Shown piece after piece: positions 2,993 to 33,713 of a stretch of DNA of 58,090 nt; the stretch's first letter is position 1; every line of letters begins with the position of its first letter. The notes under the pieces are model-generated. The model was given only the letters and a program-made list of their open reading frames with translations, was not told the DNA's origin and made no database searches. Where the stretch lies: the NCBI GenBank assembly GCA_018061105.1, contig JAGOUU010000003.1:1-58090 (forward strand), in the 5' to 3' direction. This DNA is from Gammaproteobacteria bacterium (lineage in GTDB: Bacteria > Pseudomonadota > Gammaproteobacteria > JAGOUU01). A program made the position numbers and the translations under genes.

Positions 2993-4493
<1,501 letters not shown>

Positions 4494-4497
<4 letters not shown>

Positions 4498-4811
4498 AAT
4501 ATTAAATTTTCTAAACCACTTAATTTTATTATAGACTGCATAGCTTCAGAAAGATTCTCAAAACTAACTTGTTTCTTTTGATTTCTCGCAAAAGCTAAGT
4601 AATGAACTAACAAGCTTACACCTGCACTGTCACTAAGAGTCACCAGAGCGAAATCAAAATGTGGTGAATCTGACTCAGTAATAAATTTTTCACCAGCGGG
4701 CATGATAGCATTTATATGCTCACGCGTAAACTTGCCTCTCAATTTACAGAAATTTTTGTTAGTTACTAAAATCTCTAGTTCTTGTTTACTATTACTCATT
4801 TCATTAATCAT
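4494..4811 (-). CDS. mlaB: STAS-domain subunit of Mla phospholipid transporter
   Basis: DSAGVSLL STAS motif; operon position. Confidence 0.85.
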
Positions 4812-5472
4812 TACACGTCATTTTGCCAGTACAGTTTTTGTCATGCATTTCTTTTATAATTGCATCAGGATCTTTTTGCTTTCTAAATTTACTTGCAAAC
4901 ACTGTTCGATAAGAATCAACAATACTGACATTATCGACGCTTAAATCATAGGCCTTCCACTCATTAGCATTGTTTACTAAGCGAAACTTAACAATATTGT
5001 CAGGTTGTCTGTTCTGATGAATTGTAGAAGAAATTTCTACACGTTGAACATCTCCTATTTTCGGTAACGTCCTAACTGGACAATGGAATTCAACTGTTTG
5101 ATCATCATAGGCTTCAAAAGCTACACCATAAGTGCGAATCATAAGTCGAGAAAACTCTTTAACAAAGTTTTGTTTTTGTTGATCGTTTAATTTTTTCCAG
5201 TTACTAGTTAAGACTAGTTGGGCCATTATTTTAAAATCCGCCTTTGGTACTAAATATTTATCAATAATTTTATAAGCTACTTTACGATCTTTAGAAATTG
5301 CAGCTTTTTTCTGTTTCAGTACAACTAAAATTTCATCCACTGCTGATTTAACTTCGGCAACAGCAGGCTCGGATAAACAACTTGTATTGGCGGCATAACT
5401 AGATAAAACTAAGAAATAAGCGCCAATAACGCTAATAACCGGGGCAATAAAAACTTTTTTTAATTTAAACAT
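4804..5472 (-). CDS. mlaC: Periplasmic phospholipid shuttle MlaC/Ttg2D
   Basis: DFKIMAQLVL, WKAYDLSVDNVSIVDSYR; operon position. Confidence 0.9.
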   Translation of the reverse strand: MFKLKKVFIAPVISVIGAYFLVLSSYAANTSCLSEPAVAEVKSAVDEILVVLKQKKAAISKDRKVAYKIIDKYLVPKADFKIMAQLVLTSNWKKLNDQQKQNFVKEFSRLMIRTYGVAFEAYDDQTVEFHCPVRTLPKIGDVQRVEISSTIHQNRQPDNIVKFRLVNNANEWKAYDLSVDNVSIVDSYRTVFASKFRKQKDPDAIIKEMHDKNCTGKMTCND

Positions 5473-5474
5473 AT

Positions 5475-5957
5475 TTAGTTCTCTTCTGTTTTTGAAAATA
5501 AATATTTACTAATGAGATCTTCTAATACTAGTGCTGAATTTGTATCTCCTATAGTCTCACCAAAATGGAGATTTGTGTCGCTTGCACCAGGAGTCAATGC
5601 TATATAGTTATCTCCAATTAATCCTGCTGTACGAATACTAGCTGACGAATCAACTGGTAGCATATTAGCTAAACTTGGATTGAGACTCATTTCAACAATA
5701 GCGTCATAATTTCCCGGCTCAGTGCTTAACGTAATATTTTTTACCCGTCCAATATTAACACCGCTCATCGTAACCCGCGATCTTGGTTTAAGACCACCAA
5801 TATTAGAAAAATTTGCTTTTAAGACAAAACTCTCGTCCTGCCAAGAAAAATCTTGTAAGCCACTAACTTTGAGAGCTAATAATAAAAACGCAAGAATTCC
5901 AGATAAAACAAAAAGCCCAACAACAAAATTTAAAGAATCATTGCTTCTCATGCTCAC
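5475..5957 (-). CDS. mlaD: MCE-domain protein MlaD
   Basis: FSNIGGLK...[30 protein letters not shown]; likely ATG start at 5951. Confidence 0.93.
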
Positions 5958-6775
5958 GCGAGGCCTCCAAACATAAGTGCAGTAAGCACAAAGTCTAACG
6001 ATAATATTAATAAAGAACTAAAAACTACTGTTCTTGTAGTTGCCATACTTATACCTTCAGAAGTCGGTGCGGCTTGCAAGCCTTGATATAAAGCAACCCA
6101 GGTAACGACAAAACTAAAAAATAGAGATTTAATTATGCCATTAAAAACATCTTCTTTGAAGTCCACAGCTGCACGCATATTAGACCAAAAAGAACCTGAA
6201 TCTAAGCCTAGCCATTCAACAGCCACTAAAAAGCCACCCCAAATTGCTACAATATTAAAAATGACAGTCAATAAGGGCAGAGAATAAAAACCCGCCCAAA
6301 ATCTTGGTGTTACTATTCTATGTATGGGATCGATCCCCATCATTTGTAAACTTGATAATTGCTCCGTAGCTTTCATATGACCTATTTCAGCTGTTAATGC
6401 CGATCCGGCACGACCTGCAAACAATAATGCTCCGACTACAGGGCCTAACTCACGCACTAAACTTAAAGCAATTAATTGTCCCACAGTTTCATCAGCACCA
6501 TATTTAACTAATATAGTATAGCCTTGTAATCCTAAAACCATACCTATAAAAAAAGACGCTGCTAATATAATTGGTAAAGACAAGACCCCAACGGCATATA
6601 ATTGCTTAACTAATAACGGAAACCCTTTTCTATAATTAGGAAAATGAAAAATGGACATAAATAACAAAATTGATGCCTGACCAATTTTTTCGATCAGAGT
6701 AACTGTAGTTTCACCAAGTTGATTAATATAATTAATCAACCAAGTTATTTTGTCGTTTTTTAAAAAATTACTCAT
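5954..6775 (-). CDS. mlaE: Mla ABC permease
   Basis: [38 protein letters not shown]. Confidence 0.95.
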
Positions 6776-6806
6776 TTTAATTTATTTTTTATATTAATAC
6801 ATCAAA

Positions 6807-7604
6807 TCAAATAGCCATCAATTGCTCTGAATAGTCCTGAGCAGGATAATGAAATCTCACTGGACCATCAGGAAGACCATTAAGAAATTGCTGGACCTTA
6901 TCGGAGCTACTTTGTTTTAACTCATTCGGCGTACCCTGTCCAATTATTTTACCATCAGCAATCACATAAGCATAATCAGCTATTGATAATGTTTCTGGCA
7001 CATCATGAGAAACTAAGACAGAGGTAATCTTCATCGCTTCATTAAGTGACTTTATCAACTTCACTAAAATGCCTTTACTGATAGGATCTTGACCAGTAAA
7101 CGGCTCATCATACATAATAAATTTTGGGTCAAGGGCAATAGCTCTAGCTAATGCCACTCGACGCGCCATCCCTCCTGATAACTCATCAGGGTATAAAGCT
7201 ACAGCCCCACGCAGTCCCACGGCATCAAGTTTCATCAGTACCAATGTTTTTATCAATTGTTCCGATAGATTTGTATGCTCTCGTAGTGGATAAGCAACGT
7301 TATCAAACACATTCACATCTGAAAACAGTGCTCCCGTTTGAAAAAGCATGCCCATGTTTTCCCGCGTTTTATACAATTTTTTGCGAGTTAATTCATGTAT
7401 ATTATGACCATCATAGAAAATCTGACCTTCTTTAGGGTATAACAAGGCCGACATTAATTTTAAAATAGTTGTTTTGCCTGCGCCGCTCGGACCCATGATG
7501 GCGGTAATTTTCCCCTCAGCAATATTTAGATCGACTTTATTAAAGATTATCCGAGAATTGCGAACAAAAGTTAGCCCCCTGATTTCTATTAAATTTTTAG
7601 CCAT
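6807..7604 (-). CDS. mlaF: Mla ABC ATPase
   Basis: GPSGAGKT, LSGGMARRVALARA, YDEPFTGQDP, GPVRFHYP. Confidence 0.95.
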   Translation of the reverse strand: MAKNLIEIRGLTFVRNSRIIFNKVDLNIAEGKITAIMGPSGAGKTTILKLMSALLYPKEGQIFYDGHNIHELTRKKLYKTRENMGMLFQTGALFSDVNVFDNVAYPLREHTNLSEQLIKTLVLMKLDAVGLRGAVALYPDELSGGMARRVALARAIALDPKFIMYDEPFTGQDPISKGILVKLIKSLNEAMKITSVLVSHDVPETLSIADYAYVIADGKIIGQGTPNELKQSSSDKVQQFLNGLPDGPVRFHYPAQDYSEQLMAI

Positions 7605-7773
7605 TTTATCTATTATTTTATTATTAATTATTTATTTTTACTTACAACTATTTAACCACTTGTTCTTATTAAAATAACCTATTAAAACCAATAATAAAAG
7701 TTAATGCTAACTAATTTAAACAAATAATTTTTAGGGTATAATATAATTTAATATATATAAGCTTTTAAATATT

Positions 7774-8838
7774 ATGCCTGCCTCTACTATAGACAACTTA
7801 GATAAATTAGATAAATTAGCTTACTCAACAAACACCCATGCTCAATTGTTACAAACAGCTAAACAGGTGATACTAACCGAGCAACAAGCTGTTTCTAGAT
7901 TATTAGACAGCATCAATGACGACTTTATTAAAGCTTGCGAGTTACTAATCAACTGCAAAGGCCGAATAGTTGTGACTGGTATTGGCAAATCTGGTCATAT
8001 AGGCAACAAAATAGCTGCTAGCTTTGCTAGTCTAGGCTCACCAGCCTTTTTCTTGCATGCTGCCGAGGCCCTACATGGCGATATAGGCATGCTAGCCCCT
8101 AATGATATAGTCATTGCTTTATCTTATTCGGGCTCTAGTAATGAAATTCTTGGTCTTATTCCTAGCATTAAATACTTAAATATTCCTATTATTGCTATTA
8201 CAGGCGATCCTAATTCTCTATTAGCGCATCAGGCAGACATTCATTTAGCTATTTCTATAGATAAAGAAGCTTGTTATTTGAATTTAGCCCCTACTGCCAG
8301 TACCACGGCTACTTTAGTATTAGCAGATGCTTTAACTATGGCTGTTACTAGAGCCAAACAATTCACCGAGGCAGATTTTGCGCGCTCACACCCTGGCGGC
8401 AATTTAGGTCGCAGATTACTACTTACAGTCGCTGATATCATGGTAACAAAAGACAAATTACCTTTAGCATCACTAGATACTAATTTAGCTGAAGTTTTAC
8501 TTATTATGAGCAGTAAAGGCCTAGGCATGGTAGCAATCGTCGACTTAAATAATCACCAAGAAATATTGGGTATCTTTACCGACGGCGATCTCAGGCGTTT
8601 TTTCAATAGTGGTTCGAATAATAATTCTCAGCTAAAATTGCAATCACTTGAACAAATTAAGATCAGTACTATTATGAGAACAAATTGCACCACTGTTCCT
8701 GAAAATACTTTGGCTGTAAATGCTTGGCAAATTATGTCTAGCAAAAAAATAAATGGCTTATTAATAACAGAGCCTGATACTAATTATTTGATTGGCATGT
8801 TAAACATTCATAGTTTAACCGCCGCTAAAATTATTTAA
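7774..8838 (+). CDS. kdsD: Arabinose-5-phosphate isomerase (SIS + CBS)
   Basis: GIGKSGHIG, EALHGDIG, APTASTT, HPGGNLG, C-terminal CBS pair. Confidence 0.95.
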   Translation: MPASTIDNLDKLDKLAYSTNTHAQLLQTAKQVILTEQQAVSRLLDSINDDFIKACELLINCKGRIVVTGIGKSGHIGNKIAASFASLGSPAFFLHAAEALHGDIGMLAPNDIVIALSYSGSSNEILGLIPSIKYLNIPIIAITGDPNSLLAHQADIHLAISIDKEACYLNLAPTASTTATLVLADALTMAVTRAKQFTEADFARSHPGGNLGRRLLLTVADIMVTKDKLPLASLDTNLAEVLLIMSSKGLGMVAIVDLNNHQEILGIFTDGDLRRFFNSGSNNNSQLKLQSLEQIKISTIMRTNCTTVPENTLAVNAWQIMSSKKINGLLITEPDTNYLIGMLNIHSLTAAKII

Positions 8839-13405: not shown

Positions 13406-14446
13406 TTATTGAATAATATTATAGTAAATTTCTTCAGGTTTTTCTAACACATCCCATCTCCAATTTTCCACTGGGTCAATTTGTAAATAATTATCACCCC
13501 ACCGGCAATTCTGCGTAAAATTACTTTTATTACAAGAAGATTTATATTTTAAAATAAAAGTATAAGCCTGGCTAAGATTACTATTCCATAAATTAATTTT
13601 AACTTGTTCACATGCTTTGGCTAGTACAAAAAGCGCCTCAAGATTGAATAAGCTATAAGTTAAAGCACGCGTTCGTTTAAGCTCTAATGACTGCTTACCA
13701 TCTGGATTTATTTGATTAGTAATCAATATTTTTGAATCTTCACACTTTTGACGAGCCACATCTTGTTGACTTGTAAATAAAGCTATACTAACTATCTGCG
13801 CTGCATACCAAGATTGGTGATTATTCCCTGCTATAGCGTCCTTTCTGCCCAGCTCACTTGTCGTTAACCAATTTAAGTAATTAGCAAACCAGTTTTTTAA
13901 TTTTTCATAGTCTGTTTTAGCTAACATTTTTGCTTCGGCTAAATCATCAATAGCTTTCAAAAGACTAATAACATATCTGAATTCTAGAATACCTTCAGGA
14001 TTGCCCTTGTTATTATTCCGACCCAGTACAACTTGCGCATAATTTAAATTTGGATTCATGGCAGTATCTGAATTTAAAAACCATAGTCTTAAATATTCTA
14101 CTGCCTGTTTTGCTGATTGATTGTTTTTATAATTTTTATAATCTTTAGTTAAAGAAATTACAGTTTTTGCCAAATTTTTAAATTTGCCAGCATCACCTAA
14201 ATCTACTAATTGTTTATTACGAACTCCATCTTTACGAATATAAGGCAAGCCATTAGGTGAGTTTGGATCAGGCCACCAATAGGGAGAAAAGCTTAAATAA
14301 TCATGTGGGTCAAAATTATTAATATAAGCAATTTTAGATTTGCTGGATTTATCAGTAACTGGTGTTACATCTAAATCTTGTTTAGCAAAACTCGGACTAA
14401 TCAAAGCTGCTGTTATTATAATTAATATAAATTTATAAATAATCAT
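13406..14446 (-). CDS. Secreted alginate lyase, PL5-like
   Basis: Signal peptide; HDYLSFSPYWWPDP, PYIRKDG, MNPNLNYAQ, NNHQSW, YSLFNL motifs. Confidence 0.85.
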   Translation of the reverse strand: MIIYKFILIIITAALISPSFAKQDLDVTPVTDKSSKSKIAYINNFDPHDYLSFSPYWWPDPNSPNGLPYIRKDGVRNKQLVDLGDAGKFKNLAKTVISLTKDYKNYKNNQSAKQAVEYLRLWFLNSDTAMNPNLNYAQVVLGRNNNKGNPEGILEFRYVISLLKAIDDLAEAKMLAKTDYEKLKNWFANYLNWLTTSELGRKDAIAGNNHQSWYAAQIVSIALFTSQQDVARQKCEDSKILITNQINPDGKQSLELKRTRALTYSLFNLEALFVLAKACEQVKINLWNSNLSQAYTFILKYKSSCNKSNFTQNCRWGDNYLQIDPVENWRWDVLEKPEEIYYNIIQ

Positions 14447-17579: not shown

Positions 17580-19124
17580 GTGTTAGGTGCTTTGATCACT
17601 CCTTTAAAGAATACTACGAAAACCTTTTATCAGGGCCTGCTTCAGGTTAAACCAAATAAAAATATTTTAGAAGTTTTTGAAAACTGCAAGTTAACAGCTA
17701 CTATTTACAATCAGATTTTACACTATAATCTTAAATTTTATTTATTACCTATTGTAATATTTTATTGGATTATCAAACCAATTTTTAGCCTTTTAAATTT
17801 TAATAAAATAAGTATTTTAGATTTATCATTGGATCTTATTTTTAAAATTTACTTACTAAAGCGCATTGCTGAGATGTTAATATATAATTTAATTTTAACA
17901 TTTGCAGCTTCTACGACGGCCGCTGCTGAAAGCCCAGATATAAAACAAGCTAAAATTTGTGATTGCTCTAAAATGGAAAAGGCCAAACAATTAGCCAAAG
18001 GTCCATTATATTATTTATCGAATCATTGTTTAGCCAAGATCATATCGTTAACTTTTAATCCACTGATTTCTTTCCCCTTTAAAACTATTACATATGGACA
18101 AGCGTTAGTTGAAGATTACTTAACTAATGCTGGATCATGTGTATTGCATAGACAAAATTGGCTGTCAAAGCATAATAAATTTGCTTTAGGTATCGGCGCT
18201 AGTTTTATCTTAAGCCATAGCTTACTGTCCAATTTAAGTATTTATTTTATCAATTTCTTAAGCGCTTATAAAATTGATTCTATTAGTAGTTTTATCATTC
18301 AAGATAGTTTTTTTAATATTATCTGGTTGTTTTTTATTTTAAACATTCATATCAATTCCACTCTGTTATTAACAACTTCTGAACAGCCATTATATATTTT
18401 TAAATTCAATCATTTAATCATCGATAAAATTTATGATTATTGGCAACCAAAAATCTCTAGATTTATTTCTTATCTTGGAAAAAACCCACCTAATCTTTTA
18501 CTTACTTCCATGATACAAACACTAACAAAAATATTTAAAATAATTTTACCTAAAAGCATTATTAATCCAGAAATTTTATTATCATCACCACCATTACAAT
18601 TATTTTTAGCGCAAAATTCTTATGATCTATTAAAAATAACAACATGGCTTCAAAAGTTAGATCAAACAAGATATTTTATTATTAGTACAGATTGGCTACG
18701 ACTTAAAAGTGCACTTAAATCTTTTTTTAGCCGCTGGATACCAAAAGCTTTGATTACTTTGTTATTTTTTGCAATTACCAAGCATTTTTTTGCAAAAATT
18801 AATCTACAATGGTTAGAAAAAAATATTAGAGACTCAAAAATAGACTCACTAAAAGACAATAATTCTACTATTGGTTTTTTTATTAAAATTATAAAAAAAA
18901 TGTTTAACATCAATTCTGATGTCAGGTGTAAAATTACTGATAGCGTTATTGTCGCGAGATTAATTGAACACCCCATGATAGAACATGGTTTTGAACTACT
19001 GCCTATGAAAGTTGCCAGAATCGCAGAAATCGCCCAAACACCCCAAGCAGCACCAGAAGAGTGGGAAATTCTCGATATAGATCTAGGCACCTCAACACGA
19101 CGAATACCTCGAGTAGTTGCCTAA
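17580..19124 (+). CDS. Hypothetical multi-pass membrane protein (weak EI24/CysZ-like segment)
   Basis: 514-aa ORF, GTG start with AGGAG RBS, several hydrophobic segments; family resemblance is a guess. Confidence 0.7.
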   Translation: MLGALITPLKNTTKTFYQGLLQVKPNKNILEVFENCKLTATIYNQILHYNLKFYLLPIVIFYWIIKPIFSLLNFNKISILDLSLDLIFKIYLLKRIAEMLIYNLILTFAASTTAAAESPDIKQAKICDCSKMEKAKQLAKGPLYYLSNHCLAKIISLTFNPLISFPFKTITYGQALVEDYLTNAGSCVLHRQNWLSKHNKFALGIGASFILSHSLLSNLSIYFINFLSAYKIDSISSFIIQDSFFNIIWLFFILNIHINSTLLLTTSEQPLYIFKFNHLIIDKIYDYWQPKISRFISYLGKNPPNLLLTSMIQTLTKIFKIILPKSIINPEILLSSPPLQLFLAQNSYDLLKITTWLQKLDQTRYFIISTDWLRLKSALKSFFSRWIPKALITLLFFAITKHFFAKINLQWLEKNIRDSKIDSLKDNNSTIGFFIKIIKKMFNINSDVRCKITDSVIVARLIEHPMIEHGFELLPMKVARIAEIAQTPQAAPEEWEILDIDLGTSTRRIPRVVA

Positions 19125-19133
19125 TATAAAATA

Positions 19134-20723
19134 TTATTGGCTTCTTCCACCTGCGCTATATAATTGCCGCAAATACTCGTATTGTGTAGGCAATATTTTA
19201 CTTAGTTTTTTTGAATCCTGAGCTATTTTTGCTAAATCAGCATTACCTTTATCCATAATATCTTTTCTATAATTTAGTAATGGTAAACTATGATTAGGTA
19301 ATAACCCTACTCCTGCAAAAATACATTGGTAACTACTGTTAGTCCAAAAGTTTTCAAATCTAGCAGCAAACGAACTATATAATTGATTATCTCCCTGATG
19401 ACTTTTACGGATTGGTAAACCAGCTTTTTGTCGATCTAGTATTAATTGTAATGACTCTGGCGTTTTTGTATCATATTTATTTCCCTTCCAAAAAGGAGTA
19501 TCTTCGCGTACTGCTGTTTTAAAATGCATAACGATAAAGTCTTTTACATCTTCTACCATGTAGGCTACTTTTTTATTAAATTTGTCACGTAAAACTGGCT
19601 CAATAATTTTATTAGGAAAATTTTTAATTAATTGGAATAAAGCCGCGTAGATAAAATATATACCTGTGGATTCTAACGGCTCTAAAAAGCCACTTGCTAG
19701 CCCAATGCTGACACAATTAGCTACCCATGATCTACGTCGTCTTCTCGACTGAAATTTAACAAATCTAGCTGTAACATTATCAGCTCTTTTGCCAAAATAT
19801 TGTCTGATTTCGCGCTCTGCTTCTTCTTCAGTCATGAATTGACTTGAATAAACATAGCCGTTACCCGATCTGTTATATAATGGAATCTGCCACATCCAAC
19901 CTGCTTTCATAGCTTGCGACGTCGTATACGGCCTGATTCCATTGATTTCTGGAGTTTCTGGAATATTTAAAGCCACAGCTCGATCAGTTAATAAGCTCTC
20001 TTCAAAAGAGACTATTGGTTCTTTAAGAATTTTTTCTATTAAGAATCCGGCAAATCCTGAGCAATCAATAAATAAATCAGCGGCATATTTTTTGCCAGTC
20101 TTACCAACAACACACTTAATATTACCCTGTTCATCAAGCTCTGCTGTTACTAAGTCGTCAATAATATGCTTAACTCCACGCTTGGTTGACCAACCTTTTA
20201 AGAAATTAGCTAATAATAATGCATCAAAATGATAAGCGTAATGCTGAACTTTTGTGCCATCCATAAGATTTGGTGATTTATTTTCATCACATGCTAAAAG
20301 GGAGCTAAAACATGCATAATCCATTGGTACTTTATAGTCTTCTTCTAAATATTTTTTAATCCAGACATGTGTCAATGGAACATCATCGTATGACGGGATC
20401 TCACCAAAGTTATGATAATAATAATCACCACCTTCTTCGATAGGTTTGCGCCAGTTCGAAAATTTCACACCCATCTTATAAGTAGCATTACAATGAGGCA
20501 TCCAATCAGATTCAGCTAGACCTAGACGGTCAAAAAATTCTGTTTTAATAGTAGGAACTGTTGCTTCACCAACACCTATTCTTCCTATTGTTTCTGATTC
20601 TATTACAGTGATATTAACATCAAAGTTAAGCGCTTGAGCAATATAAGACGCAGACATCCAACCAGCACTACCGCCGCCTATAATAATAATATCTTTAATT
20701 TTTTGATTATCTTTCATTTGCAT
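19134..20723 (-). CDS. Flavin-dependent halogenase, tryptophan halogenase (PrnA/RebH) family
   Basis: GGGSAG FAD motif, GEATVP, catalytic Lys in ATYKMG (K83), YHNFG, WMWQIP (WxWxIP), FLEPLESTG; colinear with PrnA as recalled. Confidence 0.95.
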   Translation of the reverse strand: MQMKDNQKIKDIIIIGGGSAGWMSASYIAQALNFDVNITVIESETIGRIGVGEATVPTIKTEFFDRLGLAESDWMPHCNATYKMGVKFSNWRKPIEEGGDYYYHNFGEIPSYDDVPLTHVWIKKYLEEDYKVPMDYACFSSLLACDENKSPNLMDGTKVQHYAYHFDALLLANFLKGWSTKRGVKHIIDDLVTAELDEQGNIKCVVGKTGKKYAADLFIDCSGFAGFLIEKILKEPIVSFEESLLTDRAVALNIPETPEINGIRPYTTSQAMKAGWMWQIPLYNRSGNGYVYSSQFMTEEEAEREIRQYFGKRADNVTARFVKFQSRRRRRSWVANCVSIGLASGFLEPLESTGIYFIYAALFQLIKNFPNKIIEPVLRDKFNKKVAYMVEDVKDFIVMHFKTAVREDTPFWKGNKYDTKTPESLQLILDRQKAGLPIRKSHQGDNQLYSSFAARFENFWTNSSYQCIFAGVGLLPNHSLPLLNYRKDIMDKGNADLAKIAQDSKKLSKILPTQYEYLRQLYSAGGRSQ

Positions 20724-21429
20724 CCCCCATTTTTGACATTAATTGTGCATCAGTAAAAAAATTGTTTTTACAAAAAGGCGCTAGCGCATGATGTATATTC
20801 ATAACAAAGTCATTAGATCCAAATACATAAAAATCAGAAACATTTAATAAATCTTTTTCATTTAGCTTTACTAAGTTACCATAGACTTTTTCTAAATCAT
20901 AACGACCATTAATCATTATGGGCTTATATTCTATGTCTAGTAAAATCTTGGACTGTTTGGCTTGTTCTACTAATTGGTCAAAATGTTTACCAATTATTAT
21001 TTCGTCTTCTGTGTATACGACATAAAAAATAAATACTTTGTGATTTGAATTAATATTAATTAAATAATCAATTATAGATCTAATAGGCGCTATGCCAAGG
21101 CCTTTACCTATGCCTAATAAAACATTTTTGTTTTGCCTATAGTAGGCATTACCTTGTGGCAGACTTATTTCTATATTTGACTTATTATTTCTAAAAAAAT
21201 TAATATTCTCATCATTACGCCCATGAAAAATTAATAACTGTAAATTATGTTCAAGAGGCGAAGACGCAATAGAATAAGCCAAAGCTTTGGCAGGATTTAA
21301 ATACACGTTAATATACTGACCTGCCATGAATGTAAGTCTAGCATTAGGACTTAAAGTAATCTTAGAGATAGTATTACTTGTTTGTTCTATCTTAATAACT
21401 TTACATAAAACACGAGTTTGAGGAGCCAT
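20707..21429 (-). CDS. NAD(P)H-flavin reductase, Fre/FNR-like
   Basis: FMAGQY, YSIASSP, PQGNAY, GLGIAPIRSI; overlaps halogenase start by 17 bp. Confidence 0.8.
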   Translation of the reverse strand: MAPQTRVLCKVIKIEQTSNTISKITLSPNARLTFMAGQYINVYLNPAKALAYSIASSPLEHNLQLLIFHGRNDENINFFRNNKSNIEISLPQGNAYYRQNKNVLLGIGKGLGIAPIRSIIDYLININSNHKVFIFYVVYTEDEIIIGKHFDQLVEQAKQSKILLDIEYKPIMINGRYDLEKVYGNLVKLNEKDLLNVSDFYVFGSNDFVMNIHHALAPFCKNNFFTDAQLMSKMGDANER

Positions 21430-21533
21430 AATCTAAATTAATCGATATGATTTATAATACCAGTCACATGATATCGGTTATATATAGAATAGACTTTAAC
21501 ACTATATTGAGAACAAAATATAGTCGATAAAAT

Positions 21534-23423
21534 TCATTTATCAAGAGATTCCCATTCTTGATATAATTTAACTAATTGTTTTTTGATCTCTGATAGACGA
21601 TTGGTAACTTTTATAGTAATACTGTCATCTTGTTGATAAAACCCTTCAGATAAGCTTAATTCTGTTAGTTGCTTATTCTCAAGTTCTAGTTGATCGATTT
21701 CCGCTAATAATAATTTTAATAATTTATTATTTTTATTATCAAGAGACTTTCTTTGAGTTGGCTGATTAGAATTATTTTTAGAATTATTTGAGCTATTTGA
21801 GCTATTTAATTTATTTGATTGGGTTAACCAAGTATTATAATCGCCGATATACTCGTCTATAACGCCATCCCCTTCAAAAACAATAATGCTACTTACAACA
21901 TTATTGATAAATTCTCTATCATGGCTAATTAATAAGACAGTACCATCAAAATTAACTAGTAACTCTTCAAGAAGTTCTAACGTCTCAACATCAAGATCAT
22001 TTGTTGGCTCGTCTAATACTAATAAATTAGCAGGTTTAGTAAATAGTTTAGCCAGTAATAATCTATTACGCTCACCTCCAGATAACACGGTAATAGGTGA
22101 ATTAGCTCGTTCTGGTGTAAACAGAAAATCTTGCAAATAGCCTATAATATGCTTTTCTTTGCCATTTATATTTACAGTATTGCTGCCGCCAGAGACGTTA
22201 TCACGCACAGATAATTTTTCATCTAGCTCAGCGCGAAACTGATCAAAATATGCTATAGAAAGATTCGTCCCTGTTTCAACAGTACCTGATTCTGGCGTAA
22301 GCTGCCCTAAAAGAATATTAATTAAAGTCGTTTTACCAACACCATTAGGACCAATTATTCCTATTTTATCACCTCGCATAACAACAGTAGAAAAATTTTT
22401 TATAATTTGTTTATTATTTAAACTATCTTTAAAATCATCTTTAAAACTATGGCTTATATTATCGGCAACAATAACTTGTTTACCACTTTGCTCAGTAGAT
22501 TGAATATTGGTTTTAATATTACCCTGACGACTCTGACGCTGCGCACGTAGCTCACGCATTTTCTTCAATGCTCTTACTCTGCCCTCGTTACGTGTACGGC
22601 GGGCTTTGATCCCCTGACGAATCCAAACTTCTTCTTGGGCTAATTTTTTATCGAATCTTGCATTGGCTAATTCTTCACTATGAAGAAACTCAGCTTTTTT
22701 AATTAAAAATTCTTCATAAGTACCTGGCCAATCTGCCAACACACCGCGATCTAATTCTATGATTCTTGTCGCCACGTTACGAACAAAAGCACGATCATGA
22801 CTAATAAATAAGACACTTGTTTTCCAAGATATTAATAAATTCTCCAGCCATTTTATAGCATCTATATCTAGATGGTTGGTCGGCTCATCTAATAATAATA
22901 AATCTGGCTGTTGCACTAAAGCACGTGCTAATAGTACACGACGTTTTATCCCACCTGATAATTTATTAAAATCTTGATCTATATTTAAGTCTAATTGAGA
23001 TATTATAGTTTCAATTTGATTTTGAGCACCCCAAGCATTGTGATGCTCAATTTGTTCCTGAACTTTTTGCATGTCATTTAAAGCACTAGTAGAACCATTT
23101 GAAGCTGCCTGTACTAAATTGTGGTATTTAGTCACTAGCTCACCAACTGGTCCTAATCCTAGAGCTACAATCTCAAAAATAGATTTATTTTCTGTGCCAC
23201 TTACCTCTTGCTCTAGAGTCCCTATTTTTAAGCCAGGCGAATATTCAATTTGACCAGAATCTGCTTTTTGCGTGCCGTTAATAAGCTTTAATAAAGTTGA
23301 TTTACCTGTGCCATTACGACCAATCAGAGAAATTTTTTCGTTTGAATTAATAACTAAACTTACATTGTCTAATACGGGGAACATTCCGAACTTTAGACTT
23401 ACATTCCGCAATCTTAATAACAT
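21534..23423 (-). CDS. uup: ABC-F ATPase Uup
   Basis: Two ABC cassettes, LAQEEVWIRQGIKARRTRNEGRVRAL, LDEPTNDLD. Confidence 0.95.
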   Translation of the reverse strand: MLLRLRNVSLKFGMFPVLDNVSLVINSNEKISLIGRNGTGKSTLLKLINGTQKADSGQIEYSPGLKIGTLEQEVSGTENKSIFEIVALGLGPVGELVTKYHNLVQAASNGSTSALNDMQKVQEQIEHHNAWGAQNQIETIISQLDLNIDQDFNKLSGGIKRRVLLARALVQQPDLLLLDEPTNHLDIDAIKWLENLLISWKTSVLFISHDRAFVRNVATRIIELDRGVLADWPGTYEEFLIKKAEFLHSEELANARFDKKLAQEEVWIRQGIKARRTRNEGRVRALKKMRELRAQRQSRQGNIKTNIQSTEQSGKQVIVADNISHSFKDDFKDSLNNKQIIKNFSTVVMRGDKIGIIGPNGVGKTTLINILLGQLTPESGTVETGTNLSIAYFDQFRAELDEKLSVRDNVSGGSNTVNINGKEKHIIGYLQDFLFTPERANSPITVLSGGERNRLLLAKLFTKPANLLVLDEPTNDLDVETLELLEELLVNFDGTVLLISHDREFINNVVSSIIVFEGDGVIDEYIGDYNTWLTQSNKLNSSNSSNNSKNNSNQPTQRKSLDNKNNKLLKLLLAEIDQLELENKQLTELSLSEGFYQQDDSITIKVTNRLSEIKKQLVKLYQEWESLDK

Positions 23424-28450: not shown

Positions 28451-29464
28451 CTAGGGCTGGCAAGGACGAAAAGAGTTTAGCTCAACAAGCTTTAGTTTAA
28501 CTCTCTTCTCTCTTGGCTCCATTGAATCCCAAAGGCGTAACAACCTTCCCCTTTGCTTTTCAGAGATTTTTTGACCATAACTGCCGTCCCTCACCATTTC
28601 GCTCGTAATGTTATGATCAGCCCAGTTAGCACTTAACTTCTTAGCGCCTACATCCCTTATCAGCTGCTCCCGGCGCTTACATTCGCTAAAGTAACGTTCC
28701 TGCTGTCTTTGGTTATATTCAAAACGCGGCTCAACAATTCCATGCACCCATGCAGCAACAAATAAATTTATACAAATAAAGATTACCGCTAGAAAAAGTG
28801 GGGAAATAAAACCTAAAAATGGTATAGAGACCAATGAAACTGTCGAAAATACGCCAACTCCAGTAAAAGCTGAAATTGTATATAACCAACCAATCGAACC
28901 CAGGATACTATGCACCGTTAATTTTAAGAATTTTTTTATTTTATTTAAAGTCACGTACTCAGGGTTATCAATTGGATCGCAAACATCAGCATTTAAACTC
29001 TGTGGTTCATCAATACCTGCATTTAATAATTCCTCAAGTAAGCAAGCCGTTTGAGCCTTGCAACGTTGTAATTCCTCTCCTTTTTCATAGACTCTACGAC
29101 AACGTTTTAATAGGTGTTTAAATTCTAGGCAAGCTAAAACTAAACTAATGACAGCAACACAAACAGCCACAGCAATTAAAAGCGGTGTAGCTGCTGCAAA
29201 ACCAAATGCAACGTAGTGCCCATAATGACTCACAAGATTTATAATCTCTAGAATCATACCAAAAGTAGGCACGAAATATAAAAAAGCACTACCAAATGCG
29301 TACCACCAAGCTCGACTAAAGATCCCTGAGCTTTCGTATCGTTTAAAATAAAAGTAATTATGTTGAAACCGAGCTTGATATTGCTGATCAGTACGCCAAG
29401 GCTCAACGCTAAAAAAATCTTTAATATTATCTCTAACTTTTTTGAAAATTTTTTTAAATTTCAT
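28451..29464 (-). CDS. Hypothetical membrane protein
   Basis: 337-aa ORF with two hydrophobic hairpins flanked by charged helices; no family recognised. Confidence 0.7.
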   Translation of the reverse strand: MKFKKIFKKVRDNIKDFFSVEPWRTDQQYQARFQHNYFYFKRYESSGIFSRAWWYAFGSAFLYFVPTFGMILEIINLVSHYGHYVAFGFAAATPLLIAVAVCVAVISLVLACLEFKHLLKRCRRVYEKGEELQRCKAQTACLLEELLNAGIDEPQSLNADVCDPIDNPEYVTLNKIKKFLKLTVHSILGSIGWLYTISAFTGVGVFSTVSLVSIPFLGFISPLFLAVIFICINLFVAAWVHGIVEPRFEYNQRQQERYFSECKRREQLIRDVGAKKLSANWADHNITSEMVRDGSYGQKISEKQRGRLLRLWDSMEPREKRVKLKLVELNSFRPCQP

Positions 29465-29584
29465 ACAGCTGCTAAACTCACAAAATATTGATTATTATAT
29501 ATCATTCAGTTGGAAAGTCAACAAGTTACTTCATCTTTATTTAAATAAAATCAATGGGTTACACTAGATCAATTCAAAACCACC

Positions 29585-29613
29585 TTGCTTTTTTATCTAT
29601 ATTAGAGTAAATT
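29585..29613 (+). promoter_or_regulatory. Putative sigma70 promoter of ssrA
   Basis: TTGCTT-17 nt-TAAATT ending 7 nt before the tmRNA 5' end. Confidence 0.55.
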
Positions 29614-29619
29614 ACTAGT

Positions 29620-30003
29620 GGGGGCGACCTGGCTTCGACATGGGTTGCGAATCCTTTTAGTGCATGCCGAGGATGTGACTTACCTCGTAAAATCCTGTTA
29701 CAAACTTATAGTTGCAAACGACAAACTATATGGCGCAGCTGACGAAGCTCGCCAAATAGCTGCTTAATACTAATAATATTTAAGTAGCCGATTACTCAAT
29801 AGTGCCTATGCAGTTGAAGTGGTCGTCATATACATAGGATCGTGGAAAGGCTTGCTCCGAGCTGGACTATTAAATACTTAGGAGCTCGCTTGGATTGACC
29901 CCGTGCGCCGGGTGGATTCAAGTCAAATATAGGCGTTACTAAACATGTAGAGCTAGAGGCATAGGACTTGTGGACGCGGGTTCAATTCCCGCCGCCTCCA
30001 CCA
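29620..30003 (+). ncRNA. ssrA: tmRNA
   Basis: 5' GGGGGCG pairs with 3' CGCCTCC-ACCA (G3.U wobble), T-arm GCGGGTTCAATTCCCGC; tag frame 29714-29767 ANDKLYGAADEARQIAA*. Confidence 0.97.
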
Positions 30004-30181
30004 TATTCAAATCCCACGACATCTAAAATCATCCAAACCCCTTGTAATTAATGAAATCTTAACAACGCCCCCTACAGCCAGCTATAAATCTTCACAACAC
30101 ATCCTTGTAATCACCAAATTCTAACTACATAATGCTTTAGAGTTTGAAGATGGTATAAAATCAGAGAGTAAAAATATAATT

Positions 30182-30311
30182 ATGAAAACCGACTTTATCT
30201 ATGAATTAACAAAGAATGTCGAGGCACATGCTAAAAGTACTGACGACGTATAGAATTTTGGTTTGCCCGTGATCTTCAAAAGCTACTTGGTTATAGTAAA
30301 TTGGATAACTA
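30182..30311 (+). pseudogene. dinD: Frameshifted, truncated DinD-like (BRO-N) gene remnant
   Basis: MKTDFIYELTKNVEAHAKSTDD, then after restoring one base (G)IEFWFARDLQKLLGYSKLDNY, matching the DinD N-terminus (W.ARDLQ.LLGY..W.NF); ends at the stop of the convergent gene. Confidence 0.75.
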
Positions 30312-31982
30312 TTTCACAAGTTCGCGGCCAGCCAACTTACCACACATCGCAGCCCATTTTTTCATGTATTCACGCACAATTTTTCCAGCCTCTAGGTACT
30401 CTATAGCATGTATAGCATCTATATCAAATATAGAAGTAATGTGCTCTTTACCGTATAAATACAAAGCACAAGGACTATGTATTAAAAACAAACCTTCCTT
30501 TTCTTCATTGTAATTAACTTCAGAATGTCCATCTGTATGCGGACAATGAACGATAGGTCCCCCGCTAACTTTAATTTCAGCAACAATCATCTTATATTGA
30601 TTCCTGCTTTCATTATAAGATTTTTTATCTATCCATTTATCGATCAAACGCCGGAATTGCAATCGCCATGCTTTGTGTAATGATGCGTCATGCCCTAGGA
30701 CAGCATCATCAACTCCTCTTAAATTTTTTGGCGACCGAACTACGGCATAGGCACGCTTTTCCTTGGGTAACTTTAAATAGTGCTCCGCAGTGTAAAGCTC
30801 CCAACGACTACCCCAGGTCCCTATGGCAATAAGTGGCCTAACCAAAATACCTATGATTTTAGTAATAATTGGGGATTTTGATAATGCTCGTGTTAAATAC
30901 GACACACCCACAGCTGTGGTCGAACCAAACGTGCGAGACAAATAAGCGCCAGCAAGTGGTGTACCGCGATCTTGATAATAGCTTGCCACATGAGCAGCAA
31001 CACTACCCCCCAGTGAAACACCATGTAAAGCTATTCTGTGGTATGCGATTTTACATTGTTTGTTTAATCTTTCAATCTGCGCAATGCCAGATTGTACTAA
31101 GTCCTGAGCTTGCGTAACTTCACCAGTACTATTTAAAACACCAGGATAATTAAATAATATCGAGCTAACAGCTACACCTTCGCTCTTGTATTTAATCAAG
31201 TGTCGCATTGCAGAGCCAGCAGTATCATCAAACTGATAACATCCGCTGTTACCATTGAAATAGACAATATTTAAACATTCGCACCCTTGGCCTTTACAAT
31301 CATGATTATTTGCTGTTATACCTGATAAAACTGTATTTTCATCTAAACGTACTGAAAATTTTTCATAGCATTTCTTCAGCTCCATATCAGCCTCATAAGC
31401 CAATAAAGCCGTTATTTGTTTACCTACAATCGGTCCTAAATCAATACGAAATTTATCTTTAGAAACCACAGGCTTTTTTATTCCTCCTGGGAAAATAACT
31501 GAGGCCAATGTCTTCGTTAGGTTTGAAGCTTCTGTTTTATAGTGAGGGTTACCAAGATTCGCAATAAAAGCTACTAGATAGGCCATTGGCATTGCAATAA
31601 TATTTAAAATAATCTCACGCACTAACCATTTTATGGCTATGTGTATGAAGCTAAATGGTAATCTTAAGCAATATTTCAGACGATTAACAGGTGGTAATTT
31701 TTTATATTTAAACACTGACTGGTCATCTACAATTGCCGGAAGAACTGCTAATTGTCTCTTTTCTACTGCAGTACGGATTTGATTATTATGTTTCTTTAAA
31801 GCTTCATATAGCATCTTTAACGTAATTGGATTAGCAAGTATAGCCTTACAAGTTTCTCTATCTAATTGATTGTCAGCATCATAGCCGTATATCGCTAGCT
31901 CAGTAGACTCAGGCACGGTTGGTTTAATATGAGAGCGATAACAGCTTACTTCAACTGCAAATAATTTCTTTAGTGTTTCCAT
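30309..31982 (-). CDS. Alpha/beta-hydrolase (lipase-like), resembles Legionella SidB/Sdb effector family
   Basis: YFNGN oxyanion segment, FNYPGV, HGVSLGG nucleophile elbow, RTFGS, candidate Asp (DDAV) and His (DGHS); N-terminal TM segment. Confidence 0.75.
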   Translation of the reverse strand: METLKKLFAVEVSCYRSHIKPTVPESTELAIYGYDADNQLDRETCKAILANPITLKMLYEALKKHNNQIRTAVEKRQLAVLPAIVDDQSVFKYKKLPPVNRLKYCLRLPFSFIHIAIKWLVREIILNIIAMPMAYLVAFIANLGNPHYKTEASNLTKTLASVIFPGGIKKPVVSKDKFRIDLGPIVGKQITALLAYEADMELKKCYEKFSVRLDENTVLSGITANNHDCKGQGCECLNIVYFNGNSGCYQFDDTAGSAMRHLIKYKSEGVAVSSILFNYPGVLNSTGEVTQAQDLVQSGIAQIERLNKQCKIAYHRIALHGVSLGGSVAAHVASYYQDRGTPLAGAYLSRTFGSTTAVGVSYLTRALSKSPIITKIIGILVRPLIAIGTWGSRWELYTAEHYLKLPKEKRAYAVVRSPKNLRGVDDAVLGHDASLHKAWRLQFRRLIDKWIDKKSYNESRNQYKMIVAEIKVSGGPIVHCPHTDGHSEVNYNEEKEGLFLIHSPCALYLYGKEHITSIFDIDAIHAIEYLEAGKIVREYMKKWAAMCGKLAGRELVK

Positions 31983-32234
31983 AACATATTTATATATTTA
32001 TAATATATCCACGTAATCTATCAATCTGTTGTAATACACTCAATATTTATAATAATCTTAAATTAACCCCATTATTCTTCGCCATAAGAATAACATAACG
32101 TATTATTACTTTGCCCTGCTTATACATAATTTACAAACAACAGGTTATATTCAAAAAGAATATCCCAAAAGAATGCAATCAGTTTTCAATTAATAGGCTA
32201 GAATATATATTAACAATTATTTATATAGAACAAT

Positions 32235-33713
32235 ATGCCTGAGCTCGCTATTTCGCAAACAGAAAGTGTGCATACTGAAGATGAGCTTATACTAGAGCTT
32301 GCTTATGCTATGGAGCGTCAAAAAGAAAACCTATTGCAGGCTAAGTACACTGAATTTATGCTTCTTAGCGAAAAAATTTATACATTGACGGGTGAAACCA
32401 AAGCTAAAGCACTAGAGGAGCATGAAGATTTATATTTTTACGCACGTGATTTGAGAGATGAAGTTAACATACATACTGCATTTTTAATAAGTCAAAGGCT
32501 ACGTTATCGAAATCGTGAACTTTTAGCTCAAATTGCTACAGCTCGTCGTAAATCTGATAAAAAAGAATTTGATAAAAGGTTTCAAGAATTAGAAGATAAC
32601 TTAAAACAAGATGAGAAAGCTTTCAATAGCGAAATACCTGATCTAAAAAGTAGATCTCGCGCGTTAAAAGAGATTGAAGAAGCTTTACTTTTTCAAAAAT
32701 TTACAAAACAACAAGTTGCTTCATTTGAGAGCAGCCTTTCTCTAGTTGGGAAAACCCTAGACGGAACCGATAAAGTAACAGAGGTATTATATCACGTAGA
32801 CCACCTAGCTGAATCTACAGATGAATTTAACTTTGCTGGCTCATTTTTTTCATTGTTGAAAATAGCCTCTGCCCTAATATCTGCTAGACCAAAAGAAATG
32901 AGTACGCTTTCTTTATCTAGTCTATTTTTTAAAGTTTTATCTGACACTGGAGCTCTCGCCAAAAGAATTGGCCCTCTTGCTGCAATAGTAGGCACAACTT
33001 TGACTTGGGCACCTATAATTAGCGTAGTTGCTGGCAGTTTAAATATAGCCTGGCTAGTAAGTAAAATTATTATTACTCAGATTGAATACGAACAGTCTAT
33101 CAGATCTCTTATTGACTATGGTAATACTAAAGAAGGCTGGTTAGATCCAGAAGTTGAATTAACTCCTAAACAAAAAAAATATAGGCAAGATTTATTTGCC
33201 ACAATTTCTATTAGGCAAGTTTGCGCAGATTCTAAAATACGATCACTATTTACTCAAAGCGAATTCAAAACTGAAATTATGCCGCAGTTAATTAAACATG
33301 CTGCGTATATGAGCAAAAGGGAACTTGTCTTTGATAATATAGCGTTATGGGCGACAATTATCGGCCTTGGACTCGGAATAGGAATATTATTAACACCAGG
33401 TGTTGGACAATTTTTTGCTATAGGAATTGCGGTAGTAATGATTGCAGCATTTGTTACCAAGATTGTTTTAATGAAAACAGCTTTAAAATCACAAGCAGGT
33501 GTCATAACTCTGCCTGAGCCCAAAGACCCTACAACAATTGCAGTATTTGGTTTAGCAGAAGCTACAACAGAAATAGCAAAAGCTTTATCTCAAACATTAA
33601 CTCCACATCTTAATGCTGGAATTAGTCCTGATCTCACGCTCCCAGATCTCCAAGCTAATACCCCGCCTGAAATTGATACCGCTGCTGATTTACCGAAACC
33701 AGCTATACCTTAA
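32235..33713 (+). CDS. Hypothetical coiled-coil plus transmembrane protein
   Basis: 492-aa ORF; E/K/L-rich N-terminus, hydrophobic segments near aa 245-285 and 368-415, Pro-rich tail. Confidence 0.75.
   Translation: MPELAISQTESVHTEDELILELAYAMERQKENLLQAKYTEFMLLSEKIYTLTGETKAKALEEHEDLYFYARDLRDEVNIHTAFLISQRLRYRNRELLAQIATARRKSDKKEFDKRFQELEDNLKQDEKAFNSEIPDLKSRSRALKEIEEALLFQKFTKQQVASFESSLSLVGKTLDGTDKVTEVLYHVDHLAESTDEFNFAGSFFSLLKIASALISARPKEMSTLSLSSLFFKVLSDTGALAKRIGPLAAIVGTTLTWAPIISVVAGSLNIAWLVSKIIITQIEYEQSIRSLIDYGNTKEGWLDPEVELTPKQKKYRQDLFATISIRQVCADSKIRSLFTQSEFKTEIMPQLIKHAAYMSKRELVFDNIALWATIIGLGLGIGILLTPGVGQFFAIGIAVVMIAAFVTKIVLMKTALKSQAGVITLPEPKDPTTIAVFGLAEATTEIAKALSQTLTPHLNAGISPDLTLPDLQANTPPEIDTAADLPKPAIP

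Follow-up and report, generated by a model that had tools for sequence, protein, structure and literature searches.

Contig JAGOUU010000003.1 of the gammaproteobacterial assembly GCA_018061105.1 carries two overlapping genes on its reverse strand, one for a putative NAD(P)H:flavin reductase and one for a flavin-dependent halogenase. We analyzed a 58,090-nucleotide (nt) stretch of this contig, here called the window, and compared the gene pair with its relatives in public genomes and metagenomes. The pair is a co-inherited unit that recurs, with no biosynthetic genes next to it, in about six related lineages of uncultured, Legionellales-like bacteria, and we think it likely to be an active two-component halogenation module. 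A first-pass annotation of the window had described a Fre-like reductase overlapping the start of an intact tryptophan-halogenase gene, set between an orphan gene and uup. We recovered this arrangement in full. Both open reading frames (ORFs) are present, with an overlap of 11 to 17 nt, and they are flanked by a convergent gene for an orphan protein of 514 amino acids (aa) (17580-19124, plus strand) and by uup (21534-23423). The features of the locus are as follows.

19134-20723, minus strand: flavin-dependent halogenase of the PrnA/RebH/Thal class, 529 aa from the first ATG
19329-19403, minus strand: substrate lid of the halogenase, residues 441 to 465
20707-20728, minus strand: gene junction, with the reductase stop codon TAA (20709-20707) overlapping the halogenase start
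20707-21429, minus strand: flavin reductase, 240 aa, a Fre/LuxG-type NAD(P)H:flavin reductase, FNR-like
21430-21533, minus strand: 104-nt spacer between uup and the reductase gene, with a sigma-70-like TTGATA-16 nt-TATATT (10 of 12 matches) extending into the last part of uup

The halogenase and its partner reductase

The halogenase ORF is intact, and its probable start is the ATG at 20717, which gives 527 aa, the length of the database protein. Based on its match to Pfam PF04820 (Trp_halogenase; 515.3 bits against a cut-off of 21, profile positions 1 to 455 of 458), the product is, by sequence, a full-length flavin-dependent halogenase of the PrnA class. Among solved structures, PrnA (PDB 2AQJ, 2ARD, and 4Z43) was the best match (565 bits, residues 6 to 523 on 2 to 518; global identity, 46.8%), followed by RebH and Thal at about 510 bits, and the indole-type orphan halogenases BrvH, Xcc4156, and VirX1 were distant (216 to 272 bits). 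The protein shares with PrnA the flavin adenine dinucleotide (FAD) motif GGGSAG (residues 16 to 21 in the 529-aa numbering) and the WxWxIP motif (W276-M-W278-Q-I-P281). K83 and E351 align with the catalytic Lys79 and Glu346 of PrnA and are invariant in 120 relatives. The indole sandwich is also kept in the window enzyme and in the 120 relatives, with H104, F106, F459, and W460 corresponding to PrnA H101, F103, F454, and W455. Because the counterpart of Lys79 and the WxWxIP motif are intact, a reading of the protein as a monooxygenase was ruled out.

The lid residues differ from those of PrnA. Based on the residue roles assigned to the indole sandwich and the amino-acid-binding triad of PrnA (Shepherd et al. 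2015, PMC5659210), the triad is altered in the window enzyme: Y443 is replaced by L448, Y444 is kept as Y449, and E450 is replaced by R455. The result is LY..R, compared with YY..E in PrnA, Burkholderia pyrrocinia PrnA, Thal, and BorH, which are all of the characterized free-tryptophan 7- and 6-halogenases that we checked. Further lid changes affect K452 of PrnA, here E457, and G458/N459, here S463/S464. The position of PrnA 452 holds K in PrnA, R in Thal and BorH, and D or E in 97 of the 120 family members; that of PrnA 450 is variable among the 120 (Q in 33, G in 27, L in 23, R in 20, S in 9, and A in 6). R455 is invariant in the clade of halogenases that are paired with a reductase.

The small protein matched PF00175 and two NCBIfam families, NF005963 (NAD(P)H-flavin reductase, 91.5 bits) and NF052252 (LuxG, 80.9 bits), and gave a weak sequence match to Escherichia coli Fre (1qfj). 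An AlphaFold2 (AF2) model built from five orthologues (predicted local distance difference test score [pLDDT], 79.8) has a two-domain FNR-like fold, and its top PDB match in Foldseek was Fre 1qfj (E, 6e-17; template modeling [TM] scores, 0.77/0.81). All five orthologues share a (P/A)YSIAS flavin site, a GK(G/N)LGI(A/S)P nucleotide site, DFYVFGS, and a C-terminal FF(T/S)D, although their overall identity is only 37 to 63%. The protein is predicted to carry out NAD(P)H-dependent flavin reduction.

At the junction, the two genes overlap by 17 nt when the longest ORFs are taken. The overlap is more probably 11 nt (ATGAAAGATAA), because a Shine-Dalgarno-like GGGGGA (20728-20723) lies 5 nt ahead of the second ATG, at 20717, and because the database protein has 527 aa. 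Such an overlap is typical of translationally coupled genes, and translation of the reductase and halogenase genes is probably coupled. The sigma-70-like site in the spacer is a possible promoter of the pair; such sites numbered 18, compared with 14.4 ± 3.5 in shuffled sequences, so the spacer site is statistically not distinctive. Cotranscription with uup is not required, since a Fic-domain gene intervenes in locus L005 and the pair lies elsewhere in L020.

Pairing across related lineages

In each of the seven independent loci found and fetched that encode a member of the tight reductase group, the reductase gene lies directly upstream of the same halogenase clade, on the same strand. Spacing between the two genes in the orthologous loci ranges from -4 to +49 nt. 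The gene orders are listed below, with the identity of each halogenase to that of the window.

Window: uup, reductase, halogenase, orphan, proS
L001/L006 (86%): uup, reductase, halogenase, contig end
L005/L028 (83%): uup, Fic gene, reductase, halogenase, 115-aa ORF, PhyH-like gene, 78-aa ORF, proS
L025/L026 (83%): uup, reductase, halogenase, SnoaL, AAA_14, AbiEi/AbiEii, proS
L027 (86% over the 149 residues present): uup, reductase, halogenase, with the contig ending inside the halogenase
L007 (79%): reductase, halogenase, tdh
L020 (79%): queH, 95-aa ORF, reductase, halogenase, dsbB, hem genes

A neighborhood survey of homologues had been proposed in the first-pass annotation, and it showed the same pair in different genomic slots of about six related lineages. 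At least three contexts were found (uup...proS, queH...dsbB/hem, and ...tdh), with the two-gene pair as their sole constant. Within the first of these, the slot between halogenase and proS is a variable islet with different cargo in each genome. The window carries there an AT-rich gene for the 514-aa multipass orphan, which has no Pfam match. L005 carries a PhyH-type dioxygenase gene and small ORFs (4654-6086), with the Fic-domain gene also inserted between uup and the reductase gene, and L025 carries SnoaL, AAA_14/DUF4143, and an AbiEi/AbiEii pair (4267-7945). We considered the 514-aa orphan and the PhyH-like gene of L005 as members of the module and rejected both, since neither gene is retained alongside the pair.

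The halogenases that are paired with a reductase group in a single clade of the maximum-likelihood tree (ultrafast bootstrap [UFBoot], 89). Identity to the window in the same genomes was 83 to 86% for the halogenase, 84 to 85% for proS, 64 to 78% for uup, and 73 to 78% for nadK. The reductase was 44 to 64% identical in these genomes and 36% identical in L020. By this comparison the halogenase is conserved like a housekeeping gene, at the level of proS, whereas the reductase drifts, and the halogenase appears to be under strong purifying selection.

Because a word-indexed homologue search with the reductase gave almost nothing, we used a profile search instead. Against 1.84 billion representative proteins, the reductase profile recovered six clusters at an E value of ≤1e-30, below which scores dropped from 153 to 97 bits and then ran into generic Fre-like proteins. 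A metagenome scan with the same profile added only two further loci, both with a halogenase downstream. P0131 (243 aa), which is the most divergent of the reductase group, is not beside a halogenase; its gene is convergent to one for a StyA-like (Smoa_sbd) two-component monooxygenase (L029, 193-2285). This context agrees with a broader function of providing flavin to two-component flavoenzymes.

The two genes are passed on together within a small clade of uncultured Legionellales-like bacteria of waste water and fresh water; public runs that carry the sequence were waste-water and freshwater metagenomes. Its G+C content (0.28 to 0.36) matches that of the contig. In a plasmid search, no close relative of the halogenase was plasmid borne, the best hits being Burkholderia PrnA at about 48% identity. 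With G+C like that of its flanks and no close plasmid relative, recent import of the pair from a plasmid is unsupported.

The first-pass annotation had also stated that no biosynthetic genes lie nearby, and the Pfam annotation, which covered essentially every ORF of at least 110 aa on the 58-kb contig, bore this out. It found housekeeping genes and orphans only, with no nonribosomal peptide synthetase (NRPS), polyketide synthase, PrnB/C/D, Rieske oxygenase, aminotransferase, diiron oxidase, or dedicated exporter. The genes identified were htrA, murA, mlaCDEF, kdsD/C, lptCAB, hpf, ptsN, rapZ, an alginate-lyase-like gene, radA, and proS; the 514-aa orphan, halogenase, reductase, uup, nadK, recN, fur, bamE, rnfH, ratA, and smpB; several orphans, a DEAD helicase gene, prfC, a GNAT gene, lptFG, pepA, pgm, dut, and a 786-aa orphan; and coaD, an aldehyde dehydrogenase gene, kdtA, a pfkB kinase gene, lpxL, and a gene for a beta-lactamase-fold protein. 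The alginate-lyase-family protein (13406-14446, minus strand; PF05426, 217 bits) has a signal-peptide-like N terminus, and its gene lies directly downstream of radA and overlaps it. ORFs of 337, 557, 492, and 786 aa without a Pfam match are interspersed among the housekeeping genes (28451-33713 and 47828-50188) and are candidate lineage-specific effectors.

Proposed two-component halogenation and competing explanations

Beyond the observed gene integrity, motif conservation, pairing, and synteny, we infer activity, substrate, and physiological role as follows. The Fre/LuxG-like protein would reduce free flavin with NAD(P)H, and the resulting FADH2 would diffuse to the halogenase, where its reaction with O2 and a halide (chloride or bromide) would yield hypohalous acid. 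This would be guided over about 10 Å to the conserved Lys83/Glu351 pair, a passage known from PrnA and RebH. Halogenation would then take place on an indole ring sandwiched between His104/Phe106 and Phe459/Trp460. The most probable substrate is free tryptophan or a closely related indole acid or amino acid, which would be held in a noncanonical pose because the lid charges are relocated (L448, R455, and E457 for Y443, E450, and K452). We rate the chance that it is free tryptophan, L or D, as about even, the chance of another indole or aryl acid as appreciable but lower, and that of any other compound as small. Having a reductase of its own may make up for the absence of a general flavin reductase suited to the task, and the halogenase probably originated from enzymes that in sister lineages sit in small tryptophan-modifying clusters.

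Several observations weigh against this proposal. The reductase missed both equivalog cut-offs by a wide margin (91.5 against 230 bits for NF005963 and 80.9 against 340 bits for NF052252), so by sequence it is a relative of Fre and LuxG and not an equivalog. It is fast evolving and has lost the Arg of the RPFS (RxYS) flavin motif of Fre. A search of RNA runs for the halogenase gene, whose activity is predicted from sequence, gave no matches. Given that its triad is LY..R and not YY..E, tryptophan may not be the substrate. In addition, one halogenase nested within the paired clade on a long branch (P0012, locus L024, 74% identical to the window enzyme) has no adjacent reductase. Its neighbors are a PAS-GGDEF-EAL protein, two unknown proteins, and a FadL-like porin, a context which hints that partner genes may lie elsewhere in the paired genomes too. 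We compared the two unknown proteins with heme-oxygenase-like diiron oxidases (HDOs), but hhalign did not support them as diverged HDO-like proteins (E, 0.14 and 0.72).

The context of P0012 bears on a first alternative, in which the pair feeds halogenated tryptophan to an unlinked pathway of cupin/HDO-like oxidases and an aminotransferase, or of an NRPS, as the split-off first step of a small natural-product route. The window halogenase belongs to a large, uncharacterized sister family of PrnA with thousands of matches, including named members from Legionellaceae, Legionella oakridgensis, RIFCSP Gammaproteobacteria, Myxococcus, Cystobacter, Bacteroidota, and cyanobacteria. One 55%-identical member, P0103, came from an MMETSP marine-eukaryote transcriptome and may be a eukaryotic gene or that of an associated bacterium. 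Halogenases of this family that are 67 to 73% identical to the window enzyme, with the same LY..R lid or with LY..Q, sit in cupin/oxidase clusters (L004/L008, L018, L016, L009, and L010), at these positions.

L004: 7949-16086
L018: 7922-18984
L016: 10001-18851
L010: 7134-13403
L009: 3441-8782

There the halogenase lies among two or three paralogues of 220 to 390 aa, each combining a cupin at the N terminus with a helical domain at the C terminus. The latter matched PF14518 weakly (22 to 25 bits, below the cut-off), and its AF2 model resembles CT610/CADD, UndA, and TenA, which share the heme-oxygenase-like diiron fold; AetD was not among the fold matches. Further members are a class IV aminotransferase (L004, L018, and L016), an AMP-dependent ligase (L004 and L018), a FadL/TodX-type porin (L004, L018, L016, and L010), and a PAS-GGDEF-EAL protein (L004, L016, L018, and L009). 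This cluster, which recurs in uncultured gammaproteobacterial and Legionellales relatives, may represent an undescribed tryptophan-modifying pathway, possibly tied to cyclic di-GMP signaling.

Other members of the family adjoin NRPSs. The halogenase of L022 (70%) follows a 3,899-aa NRPS, and that of L. oakridgensis (64%; L002, 393-12959) lies in an NRPS cluster with a kynurenine-3-monooxygenase-like flavoprotein. Also present in L002 are genes for a PALP enzyme, an aminotransferase, an FMN dehydrogenase, a glyoxalase-fold protein, and a CmlA-like beta-hydroxylase, which suggests that this cultured Legionella could make a chlorinated nonribosomal peptide derived from tryptophan or kynurenine. 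The combination of halogenase and HDO is known chemistry, as SktB/SktA and AetF/AetD act in this way on free tryptophan (PMC11869266).

By analogy, the sister contexts favor an amino acid as the substrate of the family, and since sister halogenases sit in partner clusters, the possibility of an unlinked partner pathway in the window genome has to be taken seriously. Counting against it, none of the partner genes was found on the 58-kb contig by tblastn or Pfam or in the fetched flanks on 40- to 70-kb contigs of related genomes, and the pair relocates as two genes without other passengers. On balance, we regard the split-off first step as a possible explanation that falls well short of probable. 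The first-pass description of the pair as a self-sufficient, stand-alone module holds in a limited sense. Its autonomy consists in the two genes being inherited and relocated together and in the lack of adjoining tailoring genes in about six lineages. Its sister lineages, however, carry clustered partners.

A second alternative concerns the substrate and is compatible with the proposed two-component mechanism. The enzyme might act on an indole or aryl carboxylate that lacks the alpha-amino group, with the carboxylate held by Arg455. Candidates are indole-3-acetate, -propionate, -pyruvate, and -lactate, anthranilate, and compounds of the kynurenine type, perhaps derived from a host. In PrnA, E450 binds the amino group of tryptophan, and the engineered E450K change raises kcat/Km for anthranilate about 15-fold (PMC5659210). 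By analogy with this variant, the natural Arg455 of the window enzyme could signal a carboxylate-only substrate, and it is accompanied by the loss of the Tyr443 hydroxyl. The top PDB match was 4z43, the E450K variant itself, and the invariance of R455 across the paired clade points in the same direction. What tempers this reading is the neighboring acidic residue. E457, at a position which is D or E in most of the family and K or R in PrnA, Thal, and BorH, suggests that the acidic group of the lid was shifted by two positions and not lost, so that the ammonium group of a zwitterionic amino acid could still bind in a different pose. The variability of the PrnA 450 position in the family as a whole speaks against a specific carboxylate clamp, and NRPSs and HDO-like enzymes are contexts that usually use amino acids. 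We therefore hold an acid without an amino group to be a tentative option only. The first-pass suggestion of a free indole-type substrate stands in part: given the rewired lid, the substrate may plausibly be something other than L-tryptophan bound in the canonical way, but the acidic residue in place of K452 may still bind an alpha-amino group.

Finally, export of the halogenase, with or without the reductase, by the Dot/Icm system into a protist host, where it would halogenate host metabolites or proteins, is suggested by the effector-like neighboring orphans and the adjoining variable islet, but it is very improbable given that effectors usually evolve fast and are lineage specific, whereas this halogenase is highly conserved, of a typical bacterial cytosolic type without extra domains or a recognizable C-terminal signal, and closed by a lid that suits small free substrates and not proteins.

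Known systems and significance

Flavin-dependent tryptophan halogenases have almost always been studied within antibiotic-type clusters, and many genomic "orphans" have no assigned substrate. PrnA itself belongs to prnABCD, which was contiguous in our B. pyrrocinia control, whereas the window contig has no prnB, prnC, or prnD. The two enzymes further differ in the lid, with YY..E and K452 in PrnA and LY..R and E457 in the window enzyme, which falls in a separate sister family. BrvH and Xcc4156-type enzymes (PDB 6FRL and 6Y1W) likewise lie outside recognizable clusters and have unknown natural substrates, but they are much more distant (256 to 272 bits). They are not known to have the closed C-terminal tryptophan lid, which the window enzyme keeps in full.

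RebH works with RebF, and PrnA with a flavin reductase of its own; in both cases diffusible FADH2 comes from a distinct NAD(P)H:flavin reductase encoded with the halogenase. RebF-type partner reductases belong to the HpaC/flavin_reduct family. The window pair would follow the same two-component logic, but its reductase has the FNR-like Fre/LuxG fold and the pair is the whole locus, with no natural-product cluster. With E. coli Fre, its best fold match, the window reductase shares domain order and cofactor motifs. Its identity is only about 19%, it lacks the Arg of R-P-F-S, and it belongs to a narrow, lineage-specific subfamily tied to one halogenase clade. Vibrio LuxG shows that a Fre-type reductase can share an operon with the two-component flavoenzyme that it serves. 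The sister clusters, with their halogenase and cupin/HDO-fold proteins, recall SktB/SktA and AetF/AetD, but no HDO-like gene lies near the window pair. SktB was reported to be active without a reductase, whereas the window halogenase has a hard-wired one.

The first-pass annotation had singled out the locus as its strongest candidate for an undescribed system, a label that overstates the case. Halogenation by an FADH2-dependent enzyme and a partner reductase is familiar chemistry, and halogenases that stand alone occur often. Judging from the comparisons above, three features appear to be new: the hard-wired pairing with a Fre/LuxG-type reductase subfamily whose tight group occurs with one halogenase clade, the housekeeping-like conservation of the halogenase in uncultured Legionellales, and the family-wide charge-swapped lid. 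We found no papers linking halogenases with Legionella or Legionellales, and an mSystems survey (PMC8269204) contained nothing on reductase-halogenase pairs of this kind.

The general principle is unchanged and the chemistry is expected to be standard. In practical terms, the pair offers a ready-made two-gene biocatalyst with a natural lid change at the site of the scope-widening PrnA E450K substitution. The sister clusters of cupin and diiron-oxidase genes are a pointer to what may be an undescribed tryptophan-modifying pathway in environmental Legionellales.

For the organism itself, the locus represents a minimal conserved unit of a halogenase and its private Fre-type reductase in host-associated bacteria without a cultured representative. 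In the most far-reaching interpretation, which we consider a long shot, an intracellular Legionellales clade would keep a self-powered halogenase as a near-core pair without any natural-product pathway. The R455/E457 lid would then accept a host-supplied indole or aryl acid or D-tryptophan, and the product would serve as a halogenated effector or antimetabolite against the protist host or competitors. If true, this would give a flavin-dependent halogenase a physiological role outside secondary-metabolite clusters. The pair raises the biological question of what use a halogenated indole would be to an intracellular bacterium.

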